The notes: generated by a model from the sequence alone, not told the origin. Counted from the first letter of the stretch, positions 2,914-50,433 are shown. The stretch: 64,000 nt of DNA from a virus (IMGVR_UViG_3300037249_000709:32001-96000); one strand, 5' to 3'. Program-made: numbers and translations.

Positions 2914-2960
2914 ATTATATCATAAATTCTCAAATTTGTCAAGTAGTTATTTGGGTGTAT
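2914..2960 (-). promoter_or_regulatory. class-A promoter: ACCCAAATAACTAC box abutting TTGACA-N17-TATAAT
   Basis: consensus sigmaA hexamers; related copies at 10478, 13656, 16241, 17931, 20232 (-) and 42871 (+). Confidence 0.85.
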
Positions 2961-6539: not shown

Positions 6540-6621
6540 TGGTGAGGCTGGTGGGACTTGAACCCACAACGCTTACGCAACGGGTTTTGAGACCGCCCTA
6601 TCTGCCAATTCCAGCACAACC
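6540..6621 (-). tRNA. tRNA-Leu(CAA), 3' part; interrupted at acceptor positions 3-4 by an IS607-type element
   Basis: GGTTGTGCTGGAATTGGCAGA...CTCAAAA...GTTCAAGTCCCACCAGCCTCACCA; the original 5' GAGG is at 8099-8102. Confidence 0.85.
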
Positions 6622-6790
6622 GTTACTGAAAACTTATAAAAAGTTATAAAGCAAAAACTTTTATGTTCCATTCCTTATTCAACGTGTCCATTTTTGATAT
6701 GACAAGCCATTATCTACTCATGTTTGGTATAACACTCCGAAGGCGTAAATTCCCGACTAACGTATCGGTACACATTAACAGCACTTGTTT
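6622..6790 (-). ncRNA. predicted TnpB omegaRNA scaffold (guide = adjacent tRNA-Leu sequence)
   Basis: non-coding right end downstream of tnpB, where TnpB omegaRNAs are encoded. Confidence 0.6.
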
Positions 6791-6793
6791 TAG

Positions 6794-7954
6794 CTATGCT
6801 GTCAATCCATAATTCATTAAGTTGACACTTGCCTGAAAATCTCTATCAATCGTTAGTCCGCATTCTGAACAATGATAAATTCTGTCAGATAGTTTCAAAT
6901 CGTTTTTGATATTTCCACAACAGGAACACATTTTACTTGATGGATAGTATCTATCTGCTATCACAAGCTCAATGTTGTGCCAATGACACTTGTATTCTAT
7001 CTGTCTGTAAAATTCATAAAAACATTGTTCCTGAACCACTCTTGACAAGTATTTATTTTTCATCATACCGGTTACATTCAAATCTTCTAAAACAATAAAC
7101 TTTGGCTTTCGGTTTATGATTTCGGAAGTGACAGAATGTAAATAGTTATGACGAATATTTGTTAGTCTGTGATTTGCTTTTAAAAGATTTCTTTCACTTT
7201 TTACAATGTTGCGTGTTTTACAGAAACAACCTTCTTCCTTGTTTTTTAAGTATTTTTTAGATACTCTGCGTTGCAACCTACGCTGTTTCTTCTTTATTTT
7301 TCTAATCTTTTCAGTTTTGTTAATATTCGGATAGACATTACCATCAGAACAAATTGCTAAATCTTTGATGCCAATATCAATTCCTATTCCTTGATTTGTT
7401 GGCTTTTCTTGTGATTCTTCACAATCAATTCCAACGGAAATCCACCAATTTAAGCCATCAAAAGTGATTCGTGGATTGGAATATTTTACATTAACGGGAA
7501 TCCTATTAGACTCTGCCAATTTTACATAATTGAATTTCTGCTTGTTCTTCTTTCGGCTTGTTGTCAGCTTTTCTAACTTTACATGAGTAGAAGTAAAACT
7601 GATTTTGGCAGTATCAGCATAAAAAGATGGTCTGGATTTTCTTTTGCTCTTGAATTTCGGAAATCCTGCAATACCTCTAAAAAAGTTTTGATATGCTGCG
7701 CAAGCATCTTTGATGGCTTGTTTTGTAATGTTATTGCTATAATCATTTAGCCATGTATATTTTGACTGTTTTTTCAGTTCTGTGAAAATTCTGCGAAGTT
7801 CGTAATGGGAAATAAACGAATTTTCGGCTTCGTGATTTGCTTTTTCATAGCCTAATGCCCAATTATAGGCAAATCTTGCTGCCCCCACACATTCAAACAA
7901 CTTTGTTTTCTGTTTGTTGTTTGGAAGGAGCATTACTTTGATGGTCTTAATCAT
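6794..7954 (-). CDS. tnpB: RNA-guided endonuclease TnpB
   Basis: RuvC GIDIG / VLEDL / DRD, CSCC-CSEC zinc finger, N-terminal ARFAYNWAL. Confidence 0.95.
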   Translation of the reverse strand: MIKTIKVMLLPNNKQKTKLFECVGAARFAYNWALGYEKANHEAENSFISHYELRRIFTELKKQSKYTWLNDYSNNITKQAIKDACAAYQNFFRGIAGFPKFKSKRKSRPSFYADTAKISFTSTHVKLEKLTTSRKKNKQKFNYVKLAESNRIPVNVKYSNPRITFDGLNWWISVGIDCEESQEKPTNQGIGIDIGIKDLAICSDGNVYPNINKTEKIRKIKKKQRRLQRRVSKKYLKNKEEGCFCKTRNIVKSERNLLKANHRLTNIRHNYLHSVTSEIINRKPKFIVLEDLNVTGMMKNKYLSRVVQEQCFYEFYRQIEYKCHWHNIELVIADRYYPSSKMCSCCGNIKNDLKLSDRIYHCSECGLTIDRDFQASVNLMNYGLTA

Positions 7955-10145: not shown

Positions 10146-10170
10146 ACGAACATCACCTCAAAATAATAGT

Positions 10171-10245
10171 GGGTAATTTGGGATTCTCATACTGTTATAA
10201 CTTTAAACCAAATTATGTAATTAGAAGGAAGAATCCCAATAGCCC
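10171..10245 (-). ncRNA. Rot-associated Y-RNA-like stem-loop, copy 1
   Basis: GGG-CUA-UUGGGAUUCU-UCCUUCU-loop-AGAAUCCCAA-AUUA-CCC. Confidence 0.75.
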
Positions 10246-10298
10246 GTTCTCTACTCTCCCGGCGTTCGACCGAGAGAGTGAAATGGTGAGTCGTTTTG

Positions 10299-10373
10299 TA
10301 TCGGAAATTTTAGTTTCTAATCAAATACTTAAAATGGATATTTTTTTAGAAGGAAGAAACTAATTAGCCGATA
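10299..10373 (-). ncRNA. Rot-associated Y-RNA-like stem-loop, copy 2
   Basis: UAUCGG-CUAA-UUAGUUUCU-UCCUUCU-loop-AGAAACUAA-AAUUU-CCGAUA. Confidence 0.75.
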
Positions 10374-10380
10374 ATTTATT

Positions 10381-10461
10381 GGTCGGAAAGGTGGAGTTCT
10401 AAAATCTAATTCTTCAAAATCTGTATTATTCTATAAGAAGGAAGAACTACAATAGCCGACC
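10381..10461 (-). ncRNA. Rot-associated Y-RNA-like stem-loop, copy 3
   Basis: GGUCGG-CUAU-UGUAGUUCU-UCCUUCU-loop-AGAACUCCA-CCUUU-CCGACC. Confidence 0.75.
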
Positions 10462-10477
10462 TCTTGACTACTCTTAT

Positions 10478-10524
10478 ATTATATCATATTTTCTCAAATT
10501 TGTCAAGTAGTTATTTGGGTGTAT
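10478..10524 (-). promoter_or_regulatory. class-A promoter directly upstream of ncRNA copies 3-2-1
   Basis: TTGACA-N17-TATAAT plus ACCCAAATAACTAC box. Confidence 0.85.
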
Positions 10525-10542
10525 TTAAAAAATCAAAAAAAT

Positions 10543-12774
10543 TTATAACATTTCGCCCATATAATAATCAACATCAAACGGAGTGTAGATTTTTACATCT
10601 TTCACTTTCTCAACAACTTCTATCTCTTTGGTTTTTGGATTAACAACCTCAACCTTTTCGGTAACTGGTGTTGTATCAAGTGAAAATATGACATCCGCAT
10701 CTTCTCTCTTAGCAACTATCTCGCCCCTTGCCGCCACATTGAGCTTTACCAAATCATAAAGGTTTGGCTTTCTTAAATGTGTCATAGCATAGCATACAGC
10801 CGTCACGCCTTTAAGATTGCTCTCGATGTTGTTGCCGAAATAATGCGTTCTTGTTTGTGCTATTGGCATTGCAATATCACACCACACAAAACTTCTATCA
10901 ACGCAATCAAACACAACCGGAATACACACCTTACTATCAGAGTTTAAGTCGATATTCATTTCAACTGTTGATGGTTCAAAGATTTCACCTGAGTTCATAT
11001 CTTCTCTTTCCATCCAACCGAACGTCGAATTGGGCATTTGGTTGAAATGCTGCCCTGTGTAGCTATAAACTTGGAAAGCTACATACCTACCGCGTTCTGC
11101 AATTCTGTCAATGTTGATGTCGATAAACTCTGCAACACCTTGTCCATCGGGTGAACCACCATCTGTCCTATCGCCAGAGTGTATAGCAAGTAGGTCAGAT
11201 GAACGCAGCCGAGTATATGAAACGTGTTCAACAAAGTTCCAATGCTCATCATAAATTGCAGCAGACAAATCAAGGTCTACTCTGCCAGACCAGCCGCCAC
11301 ATGGAATGTTTGTCCACCAACAATATGCCCTTACAACATTAGAATTACCCTTGGTGTGTACACGGCTTCCTCTTACAAGATGTTTGCCACTCGTGCTTGC
11401 AGAACGCTGACTAAATGGCACGAGGAAATCCTTGAAGTCGTAGTCGATAAACACCTTGCCAAGATACTCCTTGCTCTTAAATTGACTTATAAGAGCATTG
11501 TTGCAAATTTTGACAATACTATCGCAAACATTTGTGTTAATGGGCGATAAATCATTGCGGATAGAAACAACATTCGAGAGCTTGCCTTTTGGGAAAAAGA
11601 CACGGTAATTATCTTCTTTGTATCTATCTGCGAAGTGCTGCCTAACTTGGAGCAAAACAGGAGTGGAAACTTCTTTCGCTACATTAGCAAAGCAATTTAC
11701 GATATAATTTTTATCCTTGTTATTAGCTTCTCTCAATAACTTATCCAACTGCCTTGCAAAGTCGCCTGGTCTTGACTTCAACATTTCCGCCGCACCCAAC
11801 ATATCCTTATTCCTAATTGCTTGCTGAACAAGTCCGGGTACGAATAGCGGCTTCTTATCATTGCGGATTTTCTGGAAAGCCTCGACAACGCTTTTATACT
11901 TTAACTGCTTGTATTCAGATGGGTGTACAATTTCCCCTACACGAATCCATTCGTATTGGTATCTATACATATCCTCTAAGATATTACCGCAGCCAGCAAG
12001 CAAGTCCATTATCATACGGCGCTCGTATCTCCGCAAGCTCCTATAATGTGTCTTTTCAGCAAGAGAAATGTCTCCATCAGACAAACAGGTGATTAGTCGC
12101 AAAACATCTGTTGCAGTCTTATAATACCTCTGTATCTTGTCTGCTTTCTTAAATGCCGCATTATCCAAAATCAGCTTACCGAGCAAAGCAACATTTTCTT
12201 TAAGAGGAATTTCTTCCGGCAGGACTTCGTAAAAGTTGTAATGTGTACTAATAAATTCCGACACATCCGCCTTGTCCTGCTCACTCAAACTCGTCTTGCT
12301 ACCCAAAAGATTCTTGAATATCTCAACTAAATCCTCATAAGTGCCGAGCGAGAGAACTTTCAGCTTAACATCGTCTATTAGCGGAAATCTTTCTTTTACC
12401 TCATAGCTCGGAACGATTTTGCCGTAACTCCAATAATGAACCATTGCATTGAAAAATAGCTCAAATTCACTTGCTTCGATTACCTGCTGCGGAAAATTCG
12501 GATAGAAAGGTTTATATACCTTGTCAGCTCCCACGAGCTTCTTTAGCTTATTAACAAGGTCAAAATAAAACTCCCTCCTATCATCATCGTCCAAAACCGT
12601 AACTGCATCAAACAGGCTTCTATCGAATGTAAAACCATATGCTTGAATATTTTTCATTATGGTTGCTGTCTGCCTACGGTCGTCATCCGTGCAAAATGGC
12701 AATGGAGCAATCGAGCTTGAAAGCTTTACTTTATTTCTTCGTCTTAGTAACACTTCGTTAATTTCGTTGTACAT
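10543..12774 (-). CDS. Rot-like protein (TROVE/Ro-related helical repeats plus C-terminal TerD domain)
   Basis: YKPFYPNFPQQV, TATDVLRL, RPGDFARQLDKLLR; TerD motifs RVDLDLSA, HSGD, AEFIDI, YSYTG; RBS AAAGGAG before ATG 12774. Confidence 0.75.
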   Translation of the reverse strand: MYNEINEVLLRRRNKVKLSSSIAPLPFCTDDDRRQTATIMKNIQAYGFTFDRSLFDAVTVLDDDDRREFYFDLVNKLKKLVGADKVYKPFYPNFPQQVIEASEFELFFNAMVHYWSYGKIVPSYEVKERFPLIDDVKLKVLSLGTYEDLVEIFKNLLGSKTSLSEQDKADVSEFISTHYNFYEVLPEEIPLKENVALLGKLILDNAAFKKADKIQRYYKTATDVLRLITCLSDGDISLAEKTHYRSLRRYERRMIMDLLAGCGNILEDMYRYQYEWIRVGEIVHPSEYKQLKYKSVVEAFQKIRNDKKPLFVPGLVQQAIRNKDMLGAAEMLKSRPGDFARQLDKLLREANNKDKNYIVNCFANVAKEVSTPVLLQVRQHFADRYKEDNYRVFFPKGKLSNVVSIRNDLSPINTNVCDSIVKICNNALISQFKSKEYLGKVFIDYDFKDFLVPFSQRSASTSGKHLVRGSRVHTKGNSNVVRAYCWWTNIPCGGWSGRVDLDLSAAIYDEHWNFVEHVSYTRLRSSDLLAIHSGDRTDGGSPDGQGVAEFIDINIDRIAERGRYVAFQVYSYTGQHFNQMPNSTFGWMEREDMNSGEIFEPSTVEMNIDLNSDSKVCIPVVFDCVDRSFVWCDIAMPIAQTRTHYFGNNIESNLKGVTAVCYAMTHLRKPNLYDLVKLNVAARGEIVAKREDADVIFSLDTTPVTEKVEVVNPKTKEIEVVEKVKDVKIYTPFDVDYYMGEML

Positions 12775-12823
12775 ATCATATCTCTCCTTTGGTAATTTGA
12801 AAATCATTTTTTTCTTTTAGCCT

Positions 12824-12888
12824 AATCGGAAATTGCGGTTTCATAAAGTTTACCCCATCTTTAGAAGGAAGAAACCGCATAGCCGATT
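12824..12888 (-). ncRNA. Rot-associated Y-RNA-like stem-loop, copy 4
   Basis: AAUCGG-CUA-UGCGGUUUC-UUCCUUCU-loop-GAAACCGCA-AUUU-CCGAUU. Confidence 0.75.
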
Positions 12889-12899
12889 TTTGAGATTAA

Positions 12900-12979
12900 G
12901 CAAGGAAATTTTAACAACTAAATTATAAATTTCAAGTCTATATCTTCACAAATAGAAGGAAGTTGTTAGATAGCCTTGC
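12900..12979 (-). ncRNA. Rot-associated Y-RNA-like stem-loop, copy 5
   Basis: GCAAGG-CUAUC-UAACAACU-UCCUUCU-loop-AGUUGUUA-AAAUUU-CCUUGC; starts 3 nt after tRNA-Lys. Confidence 0.75.
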
Positions 12980-12982
12980 AAG

Positions 12983-13055
12983 TGCGCCAGATGGGACTCG
13001 AACCCATGCTACCACGATTAAAAGTCGTGTGCTTTACCATCTAAGCTACTGGCGC
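12983..13055 (-). tRNA. tRNA-Lys(TTT)
   Basis: cloverleaf, loop CTTTTAA. Confidence 0.93.
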
Positions 13056-13172
13056 AAATTTGCAACAACCGCCATTGATTAGTAGCGATGGGTAGTTTTA
13101 ATTCTTCCCAAGAATACAAGCAGTTTATATACCGTCAGACTGTTAGCGGTAATCTTTGTTGTTGCGTTTTAC

Positions 13173-13655: not shown

Positions 13656-13700
13656 ATTATATCATATTTTCTCAAATTTGTCAAGTAGTTATTTGGGTTT
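13656..13700 (-). promoter_or_regulatory. class-A promoter driving tRNA cluster 2 / ncRNA / Rot operon
   Basis: TTGACA-N17-TATAAT plus box. Confidence 0.85.
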
Positions 13701-13712
13701 ATTTTTAGAAGT

Positions 13713-14492
13713 TTAATTTTCTTCTATATAAATAAGATTGTCAATATATTTACGCCCTTCCCCTTGAAAAATTGGTATCTCGTCATCTATGCTCCAATGG
13801 GGGCGACTACCATCTTCCTCTACTTTCTTTACACAACAGCTTCCCCTTTTATATTTTGTTGCATAACTCTCCCAATCAACGCCGATTGCTGATAGCATTT
13901 CTTTTACTTCTTTGCACGACTTGTTCTGCATATCTCTATGTGAGAAATATACATTACCCACCATATTGATAGAATTTCTCTCTGCATCCTTTTGTCGCCA
14001 CAAAATAACATTGCAGACTTCTTCTTTGGGAACATTGAACACACGGGCATCAAACATTCCGCCACGCTCCCACGCTCTCTGATACGCCAATGTTAGCACG
14101 GGAGATGTGATTTCAAGCTGGTCAAGATTTTTGCGATAAAATTTGTTAAACGCCATTGTAGCCATACTTGCCGCCACACTTGCACACTTCTGGATATTAT
14201 AATCAAACCATCCACAAGTATTTAGTTTGTTATAATCCACAAGCACAAGTGTGATTTCATCAGATTGCGTATAGCCCAACACAACACCCTGTATGTTCTC
14301 GCAAAGATACTTCATTGTGTCCTGCATAGTATCGGACATCAGCTTGTCGAATGGCTTTACAAAACCTCTTGTGAAAGTGTGGAACGCTTTTCCGTCAAGT
14401 CGGATAATAACTGGCGTTCTTTGCGTAAGATAGTTTCGCGTAACTTTTTCGTAACGTTTCATTCTGTCTCCGAACTCATCTTTTCTACACAT
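13713..14492 (-). CDS. tRNA(His) guanylyltransferase Thg1-like protein (3'-5' polymerase)
   Basis: RMKRYE, IIRLDGKAFHTFT, YTQSDEI, FDAR, WRQKDAERNSI motifs. Confidence 0.95.
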   Translation of the reverse strand: MCRKDEFGDRMKRYEKVTRNYLTQRTPVIIRLDGKAFHTFTRGFVKPFDKLMSDTMQDTMKYLCENIQGVVLGYTQSDEITLVLVDYNKLNTCGWFDYNIQKCASVAASMATMAFNKFYRKNLDQLEITSPVLTLAYQRAWERGGMFDARVFNVPKEEVCNVILWRQKDAERNSINMVGNVYFSHRDMQNKSCKEVKEMLSAIGVDWESYATKYKRGSCCVKKVEEDGSRPHWSIDDEIPIFQGEGRKYIDNLIYIEEN

Positions 14493-16287: not shown

Positions 16288-16689
16288 TTAACCACAAATT
16301 TCCGCTCTTACTCTTTGAAGAATAGGGAATTGTATAAGCATAGCTTTCCATATAGCATTTAGCAATTCCTCGTTTTCAATAACTCCAATACACTTTTCGA
16401 GACTTTCAATCGGAATCGTTGTAATTTGTTCAATCAGCAATGTACTGGGCTGCCTTAATCCGTACTGCCCATAATCCCATAGCTCAACGTGAATAGGCAA
16501 ATTCCTTTTGTTCATCTTTGTAGTTAGTGGAATTACATTAAGAGTGGGCGCGTATGTATTATTCTTGTCGTTAGATAGAATGAATACAGGTCTATATCCT
16601 GTCTGTACGCTACTGCTTTTAATGGTTATCTGACACATCCAAATTTCGCCACATTTAGGGTTCTTTCCATAGTTGGCTTTAATACACAT
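16288..16689 (-). CDS. PemK/MazF-family endoribonuclease-like protein, no adjacent antitoxin
   Basis: GEIW, SVQTGYRPVFILSND, VIPLTT, LPIHV, EQITTI. Confidence 0.88.
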   Translation of the reverse strand: MCIKANYGKNPKCGEIWMCQITIKSSSVQTGYRPVFILSNDKNNTYAPTLNVIPLTTKMNKRNLPIHVELWDYGQYGLRQPSTLLIEQITTIPIESLEKCIGVIENEELLNAIWKAMLIQFPILQRVRAEICG

Positions 16690-22345: not shown

Positions 22346-22357
22346 CAACTTTCGTTT

Positions 22358-22438
22358 CCTATCGGTCAAGCATTACCACCTTACATAAGCAGGTTGGTGT
22401 ACGGTCATTGAGCTTGTCTCTCGCGCACTCTAAATAGG
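22358..22438 (-). promoter_or_regulatory. SAM-I-clan riboswitch aptamer (P4-less, SAM-I/IV-variant-like)
   Basis: P1 CCUAUU/GAUAGG, UAGAG, P2 with GAGAGA...CUC-AAUGA, P3 ACCAACCU/AGGUGGU, pseudoknot CAAG/CUUG; sigmaA promoter at 22450-22478. Confidence 0.75.
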
Positions 22439-22489
22439 TTTTTTCTTTTATTATAACACACAATTTATTATTTGTCAAGTATTTTTTTA

Positions 22490-35896: not shown

Positions 35897-38282
35897 TCAA
35901 CAAAACATCAACAGTTTTTTAATATTAAATCTTTTTGATTTTTCCAGAACATTTTCCGTTCTGTCTCTTGCGATTTGCCAGTTCTCGCCGTTCTTTACTC
36001 GTGTGTAAATTTCCTCGCAGTATTCGCCGCTTCCGTCATAGTGTTTGAAATACGATACTCTGCGGTATGTTTCCGTTGTTTCGCTCTCCGAAATTTTCTT
36101 GATAAATGACGGATAGTCATAATCATATGACGGATTGTAAATGTAGTTTGCCAAATCGAATTTATAGCCGTTCGGCGCTTGAATTTTCCGCAGCTTGATG
36201 ATGTATTCCGGTTTCATATTCCTTGACATAATAACGCCTCCTCAAAAATCCTTATCAAAGTAAACTGTTACACGATTATCCGCGATGTCATAGTCATTCC
36301 CGATAAACTCGTAGACGTTGCCGTCGGGATATTGGATTATTACCCGCGCTCCCGTTTCTGCCGGTATGATAACGGAATTTTCCGTTACCGTTGTTTCGGG
36401 CTTGTTGGTAAATCCAACTATTGCCGCCGATGCTGCCAGTATTGCCATAGCTATTGCGATTTTCTTTTTCATTGTAAAATCCTCCTTAATTTTCCGTAAA
36501 CAAGTCGATTATTTTCTGAATGCGATTATATACGGTATTGTAGTTGTTGATGTTCGGTAACAAGTAAATCGCCGTAAATTCCGCCGTGTCCTTGACTATT
36601 CGTACATTCTCCGGCTTCCATTCGTCGGTACAAGCATAAAAAGCAATGCTTGATAACGCGCCGCCGATAATTCCCGTTAAAGCTCTGCGTTCTTCTTCTG
36701 TTGCCTTGCGTTCTTCTAAATCGTGAGTGATAACTGTTGATGAAAAATCTCGTACCGCTTCGGCTCTGATGTTTTGGTCAAAGAAATTATCCGATAAACC
36801 TAATGTGTTAATAAATTTTTTCATTCTGCATTCTCCTTCTGCATTTCTTCCCATAGTGTTTGAATTGTTTTGTCTATCTTGTCAAGCGTGATTTCGCCGT
36901 GTTTGTACATATCCATTGCAAGGTTAAAAGCATCTATTATGTGCCATTCCATTGTATAGCCTCCTTAATAGTTGATGTGCATTTTTGCGTGTTCTAATGC
37001 TATTGCGACTATCTCAGCCGGAAAATTCCCTTCGGGATAGTATCTCTTGATTTGTCCTGGGCGTGCTATTAACTTTGTAACAAGTCTGTTTGTCCTTGCA
37101 TTATAGATGATTATTATTCCGTTCGTTGTGAGAATGTGACGTTCTGCGCCGTTCTTGTGTCCATTATCAACGATAAATTCTGCATATGTAGTGCCTTCGC
37201 CGATTTCCTGGATGTGGCGTTCTCTAAATCTGCGTTCTTTTGCATAGTGTAGACTTTTTCTCATCTTTGCCGCCTCCGTTCTTTTAAACCACCATTAAAA
37301 GCGCTTTTGTCCTCGCTGATATTGCGTATGTAACGCCGGTGTCCTTGTCTCTGATGATGCAGCCGTTCACGCCGAAAATTCCGGTACTGTACATTATTCT
37401 CGTTACTCTGCGTTCACTAAGAAAACGCTTCATTGTGCCGGTGTCGTAGTTTGTAATGTTGACTGCTTCGCCGTCTTTAATCCATCGTCTGATGCGTGTG
37501 TTCGTCACTTTTTCAAGCATAACATATCACCTTTTAAATTTATTACACTAATTTTAGTGTTGGGATGGAGTTGCTTCGGGCGCAGCTCCTCAAAAGCCCT
37601 TTTTGTTACATTTCTGTAACTCCCTTGTATACTATTCGCTTCATATCGTAATAGCACAAATCGGGCGCGTATTCCTTCAAAAACCATCCGATTTGTTTAA
37701 TCGTCGTCATCGAATATGTGCCGGTACACTCGATAAAGCGGCGATTATTGATAATCTGAATAGTGATAACGCGCGTTCTATAGCTGATGAAGTCAACGCT
37801 ATTGTCGTCGTTGATGCAAACATAGCATTGTGCATAGGGATGATTCTTCAAAGTCTTTTTCATAATGGAATACCTCCGATATTTAGTATTTGCAGTTACG
37901 GGCTTGTGACCGTCAACGGCTGCATTACCGGCAGCGGATTCGCCGCCGTCACTCTGCATTAAATGAATTGAATGTTTGCGTAGTTGACACGCTCGTACAT
38001 TATCGACTCTTGATTCAGCTTGACCTTCAGCGACTTGATAATCTCGCAGATTTTTCCGTCAATAACATCATCTGATGCAATTTCGATTCTAAATGATTTT
38101 TCCTTTACGATTTCGCCGTTCTCGTGTCTGTAAACTCCGTAGCACTCGAACATTGTAAAAGCGTAGATATCAAAATCAATCAGCAGCGTGTCCGCGATAA
38201 TCTCGTGTGCGTTCTCTGTGTTGATGAGCTGCGTCTTTGTGATTTTGTCGTTTAATCCGACTGTTAATGTGTACTTTGTCAT
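35897..38282 (-). CDS. small early ORFs (35897-36229, 36242-36472 secreted, 36486-36854, 36965-37264, 37284-37520, 37606-37863, 37959-38282)
   Basis: co-oriented with GGAGG RBSs. Confidence 0.6.
37898..37958 (-). ncRNA. twister ribozyme (canonical core, P1 closed by hairpin)
   Basis: UGCA-GA-GUGA-[CGGCGGCG/CGCUGCCG]-G-UAA-UGCA-GC...ACGG-UCACAAGC-CCGU; T1 GUGA/UCAC, T2 GC/GC. Confidence 0.88.
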
Positions 38283-47634: not shown

Positions 47635-48001
47635 AATTTTGCCCAATAATTGAGTTAAATTTCGGCACTTCAATTTTGTGTTATATGGTATATATAGTAA
47701 ACTCTATATTACTAAATTCTCATTTCTTTATCTTTCTCTTTTCTTTGTGGGGGCTGGTGTGGCAATAGTCACACCAGTTGCAAAGTTAAAGTCGGCTATC
47801 AAAATCTTCCTTCTATTTTGTTTTAATATATTTGGTAAAATAATAGATTTTGAAATTTCCGAACTGATTAGAATTTGAGAATGGTTTAACAAAAAATAGA
47901 TTACAACGCAAAAATAGGACAAAGGATAGCTACCTCTTTTGTTGCTGCAACAACAAATTACTATTTTTGTGTTATAAATAACTTTTGCAGGAGGTATATT
48001 T

Positions 48002-48993: not shown

Positions 48994-50433
48994 ATGAGCA
49001 AAAAGAAAATCAAAAACGATGGAATTTACTTTTTGGGCAAAGCATCAGATGATGTAACAGGTTCTCAATACTTAGTTAATTTTGGCGATTACAAAATTTT
49101 ATTAGAATGTGGACTCCATCAATCATCTCGAAACGATTATCTTGATAGTTACAAAATCAATTCCGAAAAATTCAAATTCAAACCGTCAGAAATCGACTAT
49201 GTGTTTGTCAATCACACTCACATAGACCACATTGGGTTGCTGCCGCGACTTGTAAAAGAAGGATTTAAAGGAAGAATTATAGCGACTCAAAAGACGGCAA
49301 TGGTTATGAAACCATTATTGCTTAATTCTTGTTTTATAGTGAATGAAGAATGTCGCATTATTTCAAGAAGATATAAAAGAGAATACAAACCATTGTATTC
49401 AGAGGAAGATGTTTATAGTACACTATCTCTTGTTGATGTTTATGATGAATACAAGCATATATATAAACTAAATGACAGTATTAAATTCCAATGGTTGCCA
49501 AATTCTCATTGCGTTGGCGCTGCGCAGTTGCAGCTTATTGTGTCCAATGCAGATAAAACAAGGAAAATACTTTATACATCAGACATTGGTGCATTAAAAT
49601 CAAAAAATCATTTTGTGCCAGATACATATATTCCCACGACCTTTAACGATGTTGTGATAATGGAATCAACATATGGGTTAAAGCGTGTAAATAAAAAAAC
49701 AAGAAAATTTGATGTTAAGCATTTGGAATCTGCAATAAACACCGTGTTAGAACGTAATGGGTCAGTCATTATGCCGTGTTTTAGTTTCAGCAGAACGCAA
49801 GAGTTATTAGTGGCTTTGTATAGCATATATGGTAAACGAGAAGATTTCACAACCGCAGTATGTGTAGACTCGAAATTAAGTTGTGACATTTGTTCTTTGT
49901 ATTTTAATCTTCTGCAAGATGAGGATTTAGAGTTATGGAAAGATATTATAAACTGGAAGAATCTCAGACTGATTACTGATAAAGAAGAGTCTCAAAAGAA
50001 TGTTAAGGATAGCACACCGAAAATCGTGTTATCATCTTCCGGCTTTTGTACTAATGGTAGAGTAATCAGTTACCTGAAAGAATATATTAGTGACTCCAAC
50101 AATATGGTGATATTTTCAGGATATAGCGGAGATAACCCGACCTATCTCTCCTATCGCATTAAGCATTACAAAGATTATAAAACCATAAGCATAAACAAAG
50201 ACAAATATCCAAATAACGCAGATTGTATAAGTCTATCAACATTTAGTTGTCATGCAGATTACAATGATTTGATTAAATATGGAAGCAATCTAAATACAAA
50301 TAAATTAGTATTGGTTCACGGAACAAAAGAGAGCAAAGAATGTTTGGCTGATGGACTCCGTGAAGCAATTTCCAAGAACGATAAAACATATCGAGTTTTA
50401 ACATCTGTAAAAGATATGAGAATCAGCTTGTAG
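48994..50433 (+). CDS. MBL-fold beta-CASP ribonuclease
   Basis: VTGS, HTHIDHIG, SH, YTSD, ESTYG, SSSGF, FSCHAD, LVHG. Confidence 0.92.
   Translation: MSKKKIKNDGIYFLGKASDDVTGSQYLVNFGDYKILLECGLHQSSRNDYLDSYKINSEKFKFKPSEIDYVFVNHTHIDHIGLLPRLVKEGFKGRIIATQKTAMVMKPLLLNSCFIVNEECRIISRRYKREYKPLYSEEDVYSTLSLVDVYDEYKHIYKLNDSIKFQWLPNSHCVGAAQLQLIVSNADKTRKILYTSDIGALKSKNHFVPDTYIPTTFNDVVIMESTYGLKRVNKKTRKFDVKHLESAINTVLERNGSVIMPCFSFSRTQELLVALYSIYGKREDFTTAVCVDSKLSCDICSLYFNLLQDEDLELWKDIINWKNLRLITDKEESQKNVKDSTPKIVLSSSGFCTNGRVISYLKEYISDSNNMVIFSGYSGDNPTYLSYRIKHYKDYKTISINKDKYPNNADCISLSTFSCHADYNDLIKYGSNLNTNKLVLVHGTKESKECLADGLREAISKNDKTYRVLTSVKDMRISL

Follow-up and report, generated by a model that had tools for sequence, protein, structure and literature searches.

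The 64,000-nucleotide stretch of viral DNA analysed here (IMGVR_UViG_3300037249_000709:32001-96000, called the window and used for all coordinates unless stated otherwise) belongs to a gut phage genome of 166,766 bp (~167 kb). It carries six small structured RNA elements, five of which flank a gene for a 743-amino-acid TerD family protein on the minus strand. The six elements belong to a real RNA family with a conserved structure. Judging from conservation and gene order, it is probable that they are genes for stable small RNAs whose dedicated partner is the flanked TerD-domain protein, and that together they form a ribonucleoprotein (RNP) similar to those made by Y RNAs and built on a different protein.

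The elements follow a common plan, which consists of an outer stem ending in GG/CC, an internal loop of GGCUA(U) opposite (N)UUUCC, an inner stem of 8–10 bp, the sequence UUCCUUCUA, a variable loop and a closing UA. Scores in the list below are from a covariance model called R1, whose construction is described in the paragraphs that follow.

10171–10245, minus strand: scaffold RNA A (R1 48.9 bits; fold z −2.57)
10299–10373, minus strand: scaffold RNA B (R1 68.0 bits; fold z −3.38)
10381–10461, minus strand: scaffold RNA C (R1 63.9 bits; fold z −2.13; inner stem imperfect)
12824–12888, minus strand: scaffold RNA D (R1 56.7 bits; fold z −3.32)
12900–12979, minus strand: scaffold RNA E (R1 68.2 bits; fold z −2.88)
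47790–47863, plus strand: scaffold RNA F (R1 58 bits, E 5.4e-12; also folded)
10543–12774, minus strand: gene for the 743-amino-acid TerD family protein (open reading frame (ORF) as listed starts at 12807; PHROG 33734, E 4e-86)

A first-pass annotation, made by reading the DNA without database searches, had reported RNAs A–E on the minus strand, together with their stem pairings, an invariant sequence and a possible collapsed sixth copy at 12791–12822. All five elements were located where it had placed them, and each one, folded alone, forms the outer stem, internal loop, inner stem and loop that it had described (z −2.1 to −3.4). The stem pairs it quoted for A, B, D and E are correct, the inner stem of C being imperfect, and the proposed invariant sequence UUCCUUCU is indeed identical in all five copies. 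The segment at 12791–12822 fared differently: even with search filters off, R1 gives it 2.0 bits (E 4.4), and its fold is no more stable than those of shuffled sequences (z +0.26). We reject it as a degenerate RNA copy, as it is the 5′ untranslated region (UTR) and ribosome-binding site of the protein gene.

The true sixth copy, overlooked in that annotation, is RNA F. It is intergenic, lies 35 kb from the others and upstream of a GIY-YIG ORF, and is on the local coding strand. R1 scores RNAs A–E at 48.9–68.2 bits (E 1e-9 to 1.6e-14) and yields no match beyond A–E and F on either strand of the 64-kb window. In the complete 166,766-bp genome it recovers exactly six copies.

Evidence for a conserved structure comes from covariation. 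R1 was built from a seed alignment of 42 copies, of which 5 are from the window and 37 from 79 IMG/VR loci that encode relatives of the protein. RNAalifold resolves two helices (6 and 8 pairs) in this alignment, and all but one of their 14 pairs (13 of 14) have compensatory changes. None of 500 shuffles attains the covariation score of the alignment (0.934 compared with 0.183 for shuffled alignments). Of its cells, 98.5% are paired compared with 55.6%, although the percentage paired (unlike the variety of pair types) is inflated by a seed-selection script that demanded pairing. Sliding the registers by 1–3 columns lowers the paired fraction to 36–50%.

Because of this selection, R1 was also tested on loci that had given nothing to it. 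This independent set comprises 77 R1 matches from 36 loci outside the seed (34 bacterial genomes or metagenome-assembled genomes, phage XacN1 and one IMG/VR phage locus). Compensatory changes occur in 12 of 13 pairs, and the covariation score is 0.825 compared with 0.180. Pairing reaches 97.1% compared with 65.1%, a percentage inflated in turn by fitting the alignment to the model, so that stronger evidence comes from the variety of pair types. Both alignments bear out the prediction that the RNAs co-vary as a family, with one scaffold kept throughout and an apical part that varies, and the family consensus can be written as nnnGGCUAU-[8 bp ending in C]-UUCCUUCUA-(12–30 nt)-UA-[G + 8 bp]-nnUUUCCnnn. 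No Rfam 15 family matches the scaffold elements at E ≤ 10 or at the gathering threshold, and the support is sufficient for submission as a new family.

The invariant nucleotides lie in two clusters across a helix of fixed length, an arrangement that argues for a rigid handle read by one protein surface and for an RNP of the Ro/Y type. Specifically, the protein-binding handle would consist of the GG/CC-closed GGCUA(U)/(N)UUUCC internal loop, the 8–10-bp inner helix and the UUCCUUCUA...UA sequences at the base of the apical loop. Above this handle, the apical part would serve as an exchangeable module, which is a short AU-rich loop in this phage and a permuted tRNA-like domain of the YrlA type in many relatives.

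Two-way linkage between the RNAs and the TerD-family gene

Searches starting from the protein recover the RNA. At 81 loci encoding relatives of the protein (79 from IMG/VR, the faecal phage contig MT835874 and Rhodococcus phage Weasels2), R1 has 328 matches at E ≤ 0.01, and among the matches listed (300 of the 328) all are on the gene strand within the flanks. A further 79 loci from bacterial genomes, searched together with XacN1 and Weasels2, contain 156 matches at E ≤ 0.1, again all on the gene strand. A regular expression for the motif detects it at 71 of the 79 viral loci, with 308 forward instances and 1 reverse, and at 76 of the 79 genomic loci, with 151 forward and 9 reverse. Searches starting from the RNA recover the protein: the pattern GGCTAT-N8-CTTCCTTCTA is present in 31 IMG/VR stretches, in 25 of which a gene for the protein lies no more than 3.5 kb from the motif and invariably on its strand. 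Of the other six, one resembles RNA F in being an additional, remote copy, with the gene 18 kb off on the same contig (L212 compared with L215).

The linkage spans protein identities from 23% to 63% and several bacterial phyla. At least four elements lie upstream of the gene in MT835874 (protein 45% identity), and four elements with a variant scaffold and the same fold lie downstream of it in Weasels2 (32%). The Xanthomonas jumbo phage XacN1 (23%) retains both UUCCUUCUA and CUUUCC. The pairing of RNA and gene also occurs in chromosomes of Paenibacillus, Priestia megaterium, Bacillus toyonensis, Neobacillus, Brevibacillus, Acidobacteria, Armatimonadota and Microscillaceae. Thus, co-occurrence outside this phage, on which the first-pass annotation had made its reading depend, was found from both search directions and in distant phages as well as bacteria. 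As a separate observation, positions 808–1108 of MT835874 (locus L001) hold a tmRNA gene (94.2 bits) within a tRNA cluster just upstream of the RNA array.

Copy number and placement vary among these loci. Bacillales typically have two copies just upstream of the gene (20 of 30 loci have exactly two), phage loci have arrays of up to 8–9 copies, and some loci (for example L037, L049 and L062) have copies only downstream. Transfer RNA genes occur in the flanks of 33 of the 79 viral loci, with all 121 of 121 on the same strand. In Paenibacillus and Priestia a promoter-like site precedes the RNAs and the start codon follows them. No flanking protein genes are shared among five bacterial genomes with the cassette, and because the neighbours differ in all five, the RNA-plus-gene cassette appears to be self-contained. 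One Paenibacillus locus (L134) has a third, degenerate copy at 1417–1479 (24 bits) that runs right up to the start codon, leaving no evident ribosome-binding site in between, and this copy may bear on translation control.

Loop lengths in the RNA family are bimodal. In long-loop members, a tRNA-like module takes the place of the variable loop, its parts permuted to run T arm, closed acceptor-like hairpin, D arm. A strict regular expression detects such modules at 23 of 79 viral loci and at 8 of 79 genomic loci, without a single reverse-strand instance, and folding reveals one member with such a module in Weasels2. The Rfam YrlA model (RF02553) matches relatives of the window RNAs at 51, 38.8, 37, 36.3, 35.9, 34.6, 32.9 and 26.4 bits (E 1.5e-8 to 0.2). 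These alignments cover the T arm, the acceptor-like hairpin and the D arm, and match the protein-binding stem poorly. Within the window, the sole match to the YrlA model is 17.7 bits, over tRNA genes.

The proposed partner protein and the transcription units

The start codon of the protein gene is likely to be the ATG at 12774, because a AAAGGAGAG site precedes it and the resulting 743 amino acids fit the length of homologues (mostly 735–745 amino acids among the matches listed). The leader between RNA D and the ORF is short and has a good ribosome-binding site. The NCBI name is TerD family protein, and the family comprises 2872 representatives at 50% identity. An N-terminal region of ~470 residues that looks helical is followed by a TerD-like domain at residues ~480–700. 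Pfam TerD (PF02342) matches the window protein at E 0.008 and 16.1 bits, below the cutoff of 25.3, and it matches 15 of 54 family members with a best E of 1.4e-9. A family profile retrieves TerD structures from the PDB (3ibz, E 5.6e-4; 2kxt, E 1.7e-3), and the C-terminal ~200 residues align to TerD, including the DxDxS and GD...G...E/D stretches. By these comparisons the C-terminal domain is taken as TerD-like, weakly for the window protein and clearly for the family.

The closest named model is NCBIfam NF041916 (MXAN_6230/SCO0854 family RING domain-containing protein), which matches residues 314–693 at E 1.8e-118 and 397 bits, compared with a cutoff of 600. The best stretch covers profile positions 391–764 of 842. 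On this alignment the window protein is a homologue of the NF041916 family and not a member of it, with the central and TerD parts in common. A sample of 151 genomes contains no full NF041916 member, only forms without the RING domain.

The first-pass annotation had called the gene Rot-like, meaning a TROVE-related region joined to TerD. The TerD part of this label stands, weakly for this protein and clearly for its family, whereas the TROVE part finds no support in sequence comparisons. Pfam TROVE (PF05731 plus PF25045) matches neither the window protein nor any of the 54 family members scanned at E ≤ 1. Using hhalign, the family compared with 14 genuine TROVE proteins from bacterial genomes gives a probability of 1.0% (E 0.053), with both alignments shallow (Neff 4.2 and 3.5) and thus leaving room for a remote relationship, and comparison with a single Rsr gives 0.4%. 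No TROVE protein is found in a PDB profile search with the protein or its family, and the ESM Atlas returned no named family for the N-terminal 470 residues. The C terminus matches TerD and not vWA, whereas genuine Rsr controls do match vWA_Ro60; vWA/MIDAS and TerD domains alike bind divalent cations. PADLOC includes no defence family that matches the protein. In a separate observation, one Bacillota genome (G158; loci L197, L199 and L169) encodes two TerD-family paralogues of 773 and 723 amino acids together with a genuine TROVE/vWA Rsr gene.

In the window, the five minus-strand RNAs fall into two transcription units, whose other features are listed here.

13656–13684, minus strand: promoter of unit 1 (12 of 12 match to the sigma-70 consensus, with the TG extension of an extended −10 element)
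10478–10506, minus strand: promoter of unit 2 (12 of 12 match to the sigma-70 consensus, extended −10)
12982–13055, minus strand: tRNA-Lys(UUU) (ARAGORN and Rfam, 73.9 bits), ending 2–3 nt before RNA E
13056–13172, minus strand: structured spacer of 117 nt between tRNA-Ile and tRNA-Lys (closed long multi-branch fold, −26.7 kcal/mol, z −2.4)
10246–10300, minus strand: GC-rich 11-bp hairpin between RNAs B and A (−20.3 kcal/mol, z −4.51, none of 200 shuffles equally stable)

Unit 1 reads tRNA-Gln, tRNA-Ser, tRNA-Ile, the structured spacer, tRNA-Lys, RNA E, RNA D and the protein gene. Unit 2, whose promoter directly follows the stop codon of the 743-amino-acid protein gene, reads RNA C, RNA B, the GC-rich hairpin and RNA A, with a methylase-like ORF 26 nt farther on. 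The two promoters are an identical 29-mer, and the promoter that the first-pass annotation had assigned to three copies at 10478 is present as a complete consensus match. The 303-nt RNA of unit 2 folds as independent modules (z −4.56). Neither the spacer, which has no Rfam family match, nor the GC-rich hairpin, which lacks a T-run, belongs to the RNA family defined by R1. The abutting tRNA-Lys suggests that the 5′ end of RNA E is released by tRNA 3′ processing. More generally, the RNAs are probably cut out by tRNA- or RNA-processing enzymes after synthesis from the two units, one of which is a tRNA operon.

Several other elements were observed in the window. The 29-base promoter occurs a third time at 2914–2942 (minus strand) with 2 mismatches, where none is expected by chance, and short pieces of it are present in many other metagenome contigs. 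Genes with ties to RNA metabolism near the RNA copies encode a MazF/PemK-like endoribonuclease (16291–16689, minus strand), a Thg1-like tRNA-His guanylyltransferase (13716–14492, minus strand) and a beta-CASP metallo-beta-lactamase RNase-type protein (48994–50430, plus strand). A RAGATH-18 RNA (6671–6743, minus strand, 73.1 bits) lies just 3′ of a TnpB/IS605 OrfB-like gene (6797–7954, minus strand), and there is a weak tRNA-like match at 6543–6623. Finally, a type-P5 twister ribozyme (37898–37958, minus strand) exceeds its gathering score at 58.5 bits, and a SAM riboswitch aptamer (22356–22440, minus strand) scores 48.8 bits compared with a gathering score of 44.4.

Alternative roles for the RNAs

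The first-pass annotation had suggested that the loops might be address labels for mRNA leaders, or that the invariant motif might be a decoy of the Shine-Dalgarno type. In five copies, the longest complementarity between loop and phage genome is 11–15 nt, compared with a shuffle mean of ~12.5 and a maximum of 16. The loop of copy C has a 17-nt complementarity at genome position 152404, which we treat as chance given that six copies were tested. Between phages, loop sequences are no more alike than shuffled controls. Address labels are thus not upheld, with no conservation of loops across phages and complementarity above shuffles in only one of the six copies. The decoy idea is also disfavoured, as UUCCUUCUA is unchanged in a Xanthomonas phage, Clostridia phages and Paenibacillus chromosomes, and such constancy across hosts better fits a protein contact or a universal target than host-specific mRNA leaders. 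Taken together, a host-invariant motif, unconserved loops and the lack of excess complementarity do not favour action on mRNA leaders.

The copies share the strand of the gene throughout and tend to lie no more than a few hundred bases from it, a pattern that could also reflect cis-acting regulatory sites in the UTRs of the TerD-family mRNA, bound by the protein or another factor to control translation or stability and not acting as free RNAs. Copies between promoter-like site and start codon in Paenibacillus and Priestia, the degenerate third copy abutting the ATG at L134, and an RNA-library contig in which RNA D and part of RNA E are continuous with ~110 nt from the 5′ end of the ORF would all be expected of such sites. 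Nevertheless, we consider this explanation unlikely. Three copies in the window follow the gene and have a consensus promoter to themselves, one is located directly 3′ of a tRNA, and a full copy is 35 kb away, as is similarly observed on another phage contig (L212 compared with L215). Arrays of 8–9 copies, loci with downstream copies only (such as L037, L049 and L062) and members with tRNA-like modules are likewise at odds with cis-acting sites.

The constancy of the motif across hosts, the expansion of arrays in phages and their embedding in tRNA clusters (33 of 79 viral loci) would suit a quite improbable alternative in which the invariant UUCCUUCUA loop imitates a pyrimidine-rich rRNA or tRNA target of an endoribonuclease such as a MazF-type toxin, the protein presents or protects the RNAs, and the arrays serve phage counter-defence. 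Some mycobacterial MazF toxins cut rRNA at UUCCU or UCCUU, although the resemblance of the motif to any rRNA site is short. The MazF/PemK-like gene is 3.5 kb off in the window, both of the closest complete relatives have one as well, and the Thg1-like tRNA repair gene is adjacent. However, MazF is absent in three of five other phage records and is 15–18 kb from the cassette in the other two, the cassette stands alone among unrelated neighbours in many bacterial chromosomes, and the protein has no match to a PADLOC defence family. Still less credible is that the RNAs serve a host Ro60/Rsr, or act as tRNA-like or antisense regulators independent of the protein, with gene adjacency reflecting shared regulation. 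The modules in relatives do resemble YrlA, a known partner of Rsr, and two cassette-bearing genomes also encode TROVE proteins; yet five of eight such bacterial genomes and six phages have no TROVE gene, the Rsr-binding motif of YrlA is absent, the loops have neither conserved nor complementary targets, and the RNAs stay linked to the TerD-family gene at protein identities of 23% to 63% in several bacterial phyla.

Several points weigh against a Y-RNA-like RNP formed with the TerD-family protein, in addition to the inflated pairing percentages given above. None of the six copies in the window has a tRNA-like module. All YrlA matches in relatives are below the gathering score of 69, and these relatives lack the GNCGAA protein-binding motif of YrlA, the consensus here being GGCUAU...UUUCC. 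Because the N-terminal domain shows no TROVE sequence similarity, it is the RNAs and the gene order that carry the analogy to Ro proteins. Genuine TROVE proteins are encoded in two of eight cassette-bearing bacterial genomes, and the chromosomal RNAs located between promoter and gene could act as cis leaders there. Physical binding, the nucleotides that touch the protein, tethering and processing are what we infer from these comparisons.

Expression counts as a weak argument, as the data are assembled contigs of public runs. The RNA-Seq metatranscriptome contig of 301 nt described above spans 12665–12965. A second contig of 297 nt covers exactly 10169–10466, from the predicted start site of the unit 2 promoter to 2 nt past copy A, and comes from a run that was filed as metatranscriptomic but flagged as ‘probably DNA’; contigs from a DNA run continue past both of its ends. 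This gives a weak hint of a discrete three-RNA transcript from unit 2.

If an RNP is indeed formed, its operation can be sketched by analogy with Ro60/Rsr. The protein would be loaded with one of several RNAs, whose module would recruit or block other factors, and the RNA would thereby gate the protein or tether it to exoribonucleases or tRNA enzymes.

Neither this RNA family nor an RNA partner for the protein family is described in Rfam 15 or the literature searched, although an earlier computational mention is possible. No paper found there combines YrlA with TerD, and papers on YrlA and bacteriophages do not, by their titles and abstracts, treat this system. Among the matches listed, publications on RNA motifs and covariation make no mention of TerD, and hits to the motif string are unrelated. 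The locus tags SCO0854 and MXAN_6230 are absent from the literature searched. If binding is true, a large family named for TerD gains a partner and a testable role, TerD domains become tied to RNA biology, and a new type of cargo can be added to those known from phage tRNA clusters. The cassette is present in culturable bacteria (Priestia megaterium, Bacillus toyonensis and Paenibacillus), and thus direct bench testing is possible.

Relation to Y RNAs and other known systems

Classical TerD proteins are ~190 amino acids long and are encoded in ter operons, and we know of no RNA partner for them. The family described here differs in adding a ~470-residue N-terminal region, in standing alone and in its linkage to RNAs. 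Stand-alone TerD genes have been noted in actinobacterial jumbo phages as components of the Ter system and part of superinfection exclusion, and ROT/TROVE proteins in a few jumbo phages separately from TerD genes; RNAs go unmentioned in the available text of that study (Iyer et al. 2021, PMC7824862). Pfam TROVE has no match in this phage, in five other cassette phages or in five of eight cassette-bearing bacterial genomes, so that a canonical Ro60 is mostly not at hand as a partner for the RNAs.

The nearest RNA systems are those of Ro60 (Rsr). YrlA RNAs are distinguished by a permuted tRNA-like order, their hallmark, and by a GNCGAA(N)G Ro60-binding motif near the 5′ end (Chen et al. 2014, PMC4201824). 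In Thermus phage phiLo, two Y-like RNAs, Yrl1 and Yrl2, are encoded upstream of the phiRo60 gene and assemble into a complex with host PNPase (PMC12135203).

The RNAs and protein described here depart from these precedents in several ways. The TerD-family protein, which takes the place of the Ro60/TROVE neighbour of YrlA, bears no similarity that can be detected to TROVE or to vWA domains of the Ro60 type, and its C-terminal domain is TerD. In the handle, GGCUA/UUUCC and UUCCUUCUA stand in place of GNCGAA or GGUCCGA, arrays reach 8–9 copies, no copy attains the YrlA gathering score, and the tRNA-like module is missing from most members, among them the six here. The likeness to Y RNAs that the first-pass annotation had drawn is therefore upheld by the YrlA-type module in relatives (E down to 1.5e-8) and qualified by scores below the gathering threshold.

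To our knowledge, Ro60 with its Y RNAs is the only well-known case in which modular, tRNA-mimicking small RNAs regulate a ring protein. In common with that system, a single large protein gene has between one and several small structured RNAs beside it on its own strand, and the order of RNAs upstream of the protein gene parallels that of Yrl1 and Yrl2 with phiRo60 in phiLo. Furthermore, the RNAs are modular, with a conserved stem and a variable effector part; the effector part in relatives of the window RNAs is a permuted tRNA mimic like that of YrlA; and both systems occur in large phages among tRNA genes. Y-RNA logic, down to the YrlA-type module in relatives, thus seems to be attached here to a different and very common protein. 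More tentatively, and with somewhat less confidence than we would need to favour it outright, the cassette may represent a second RNP system of the Y-RNA type that is independent of TROVE, in which case the enigmatic TerD fold would acquire a first role linked to RNA. Such a system would join an RNA-binding N-terminal domain and a TerD metal or ligand sensor to interchangeable RNAs, some of them tRNA mimics, through the GGCUA/UUCCUUCUA handle, and large phages would multiply the RNA genes in tRNA operons so as to commandeer RNA decay or tRNA surveillance in the infected host.

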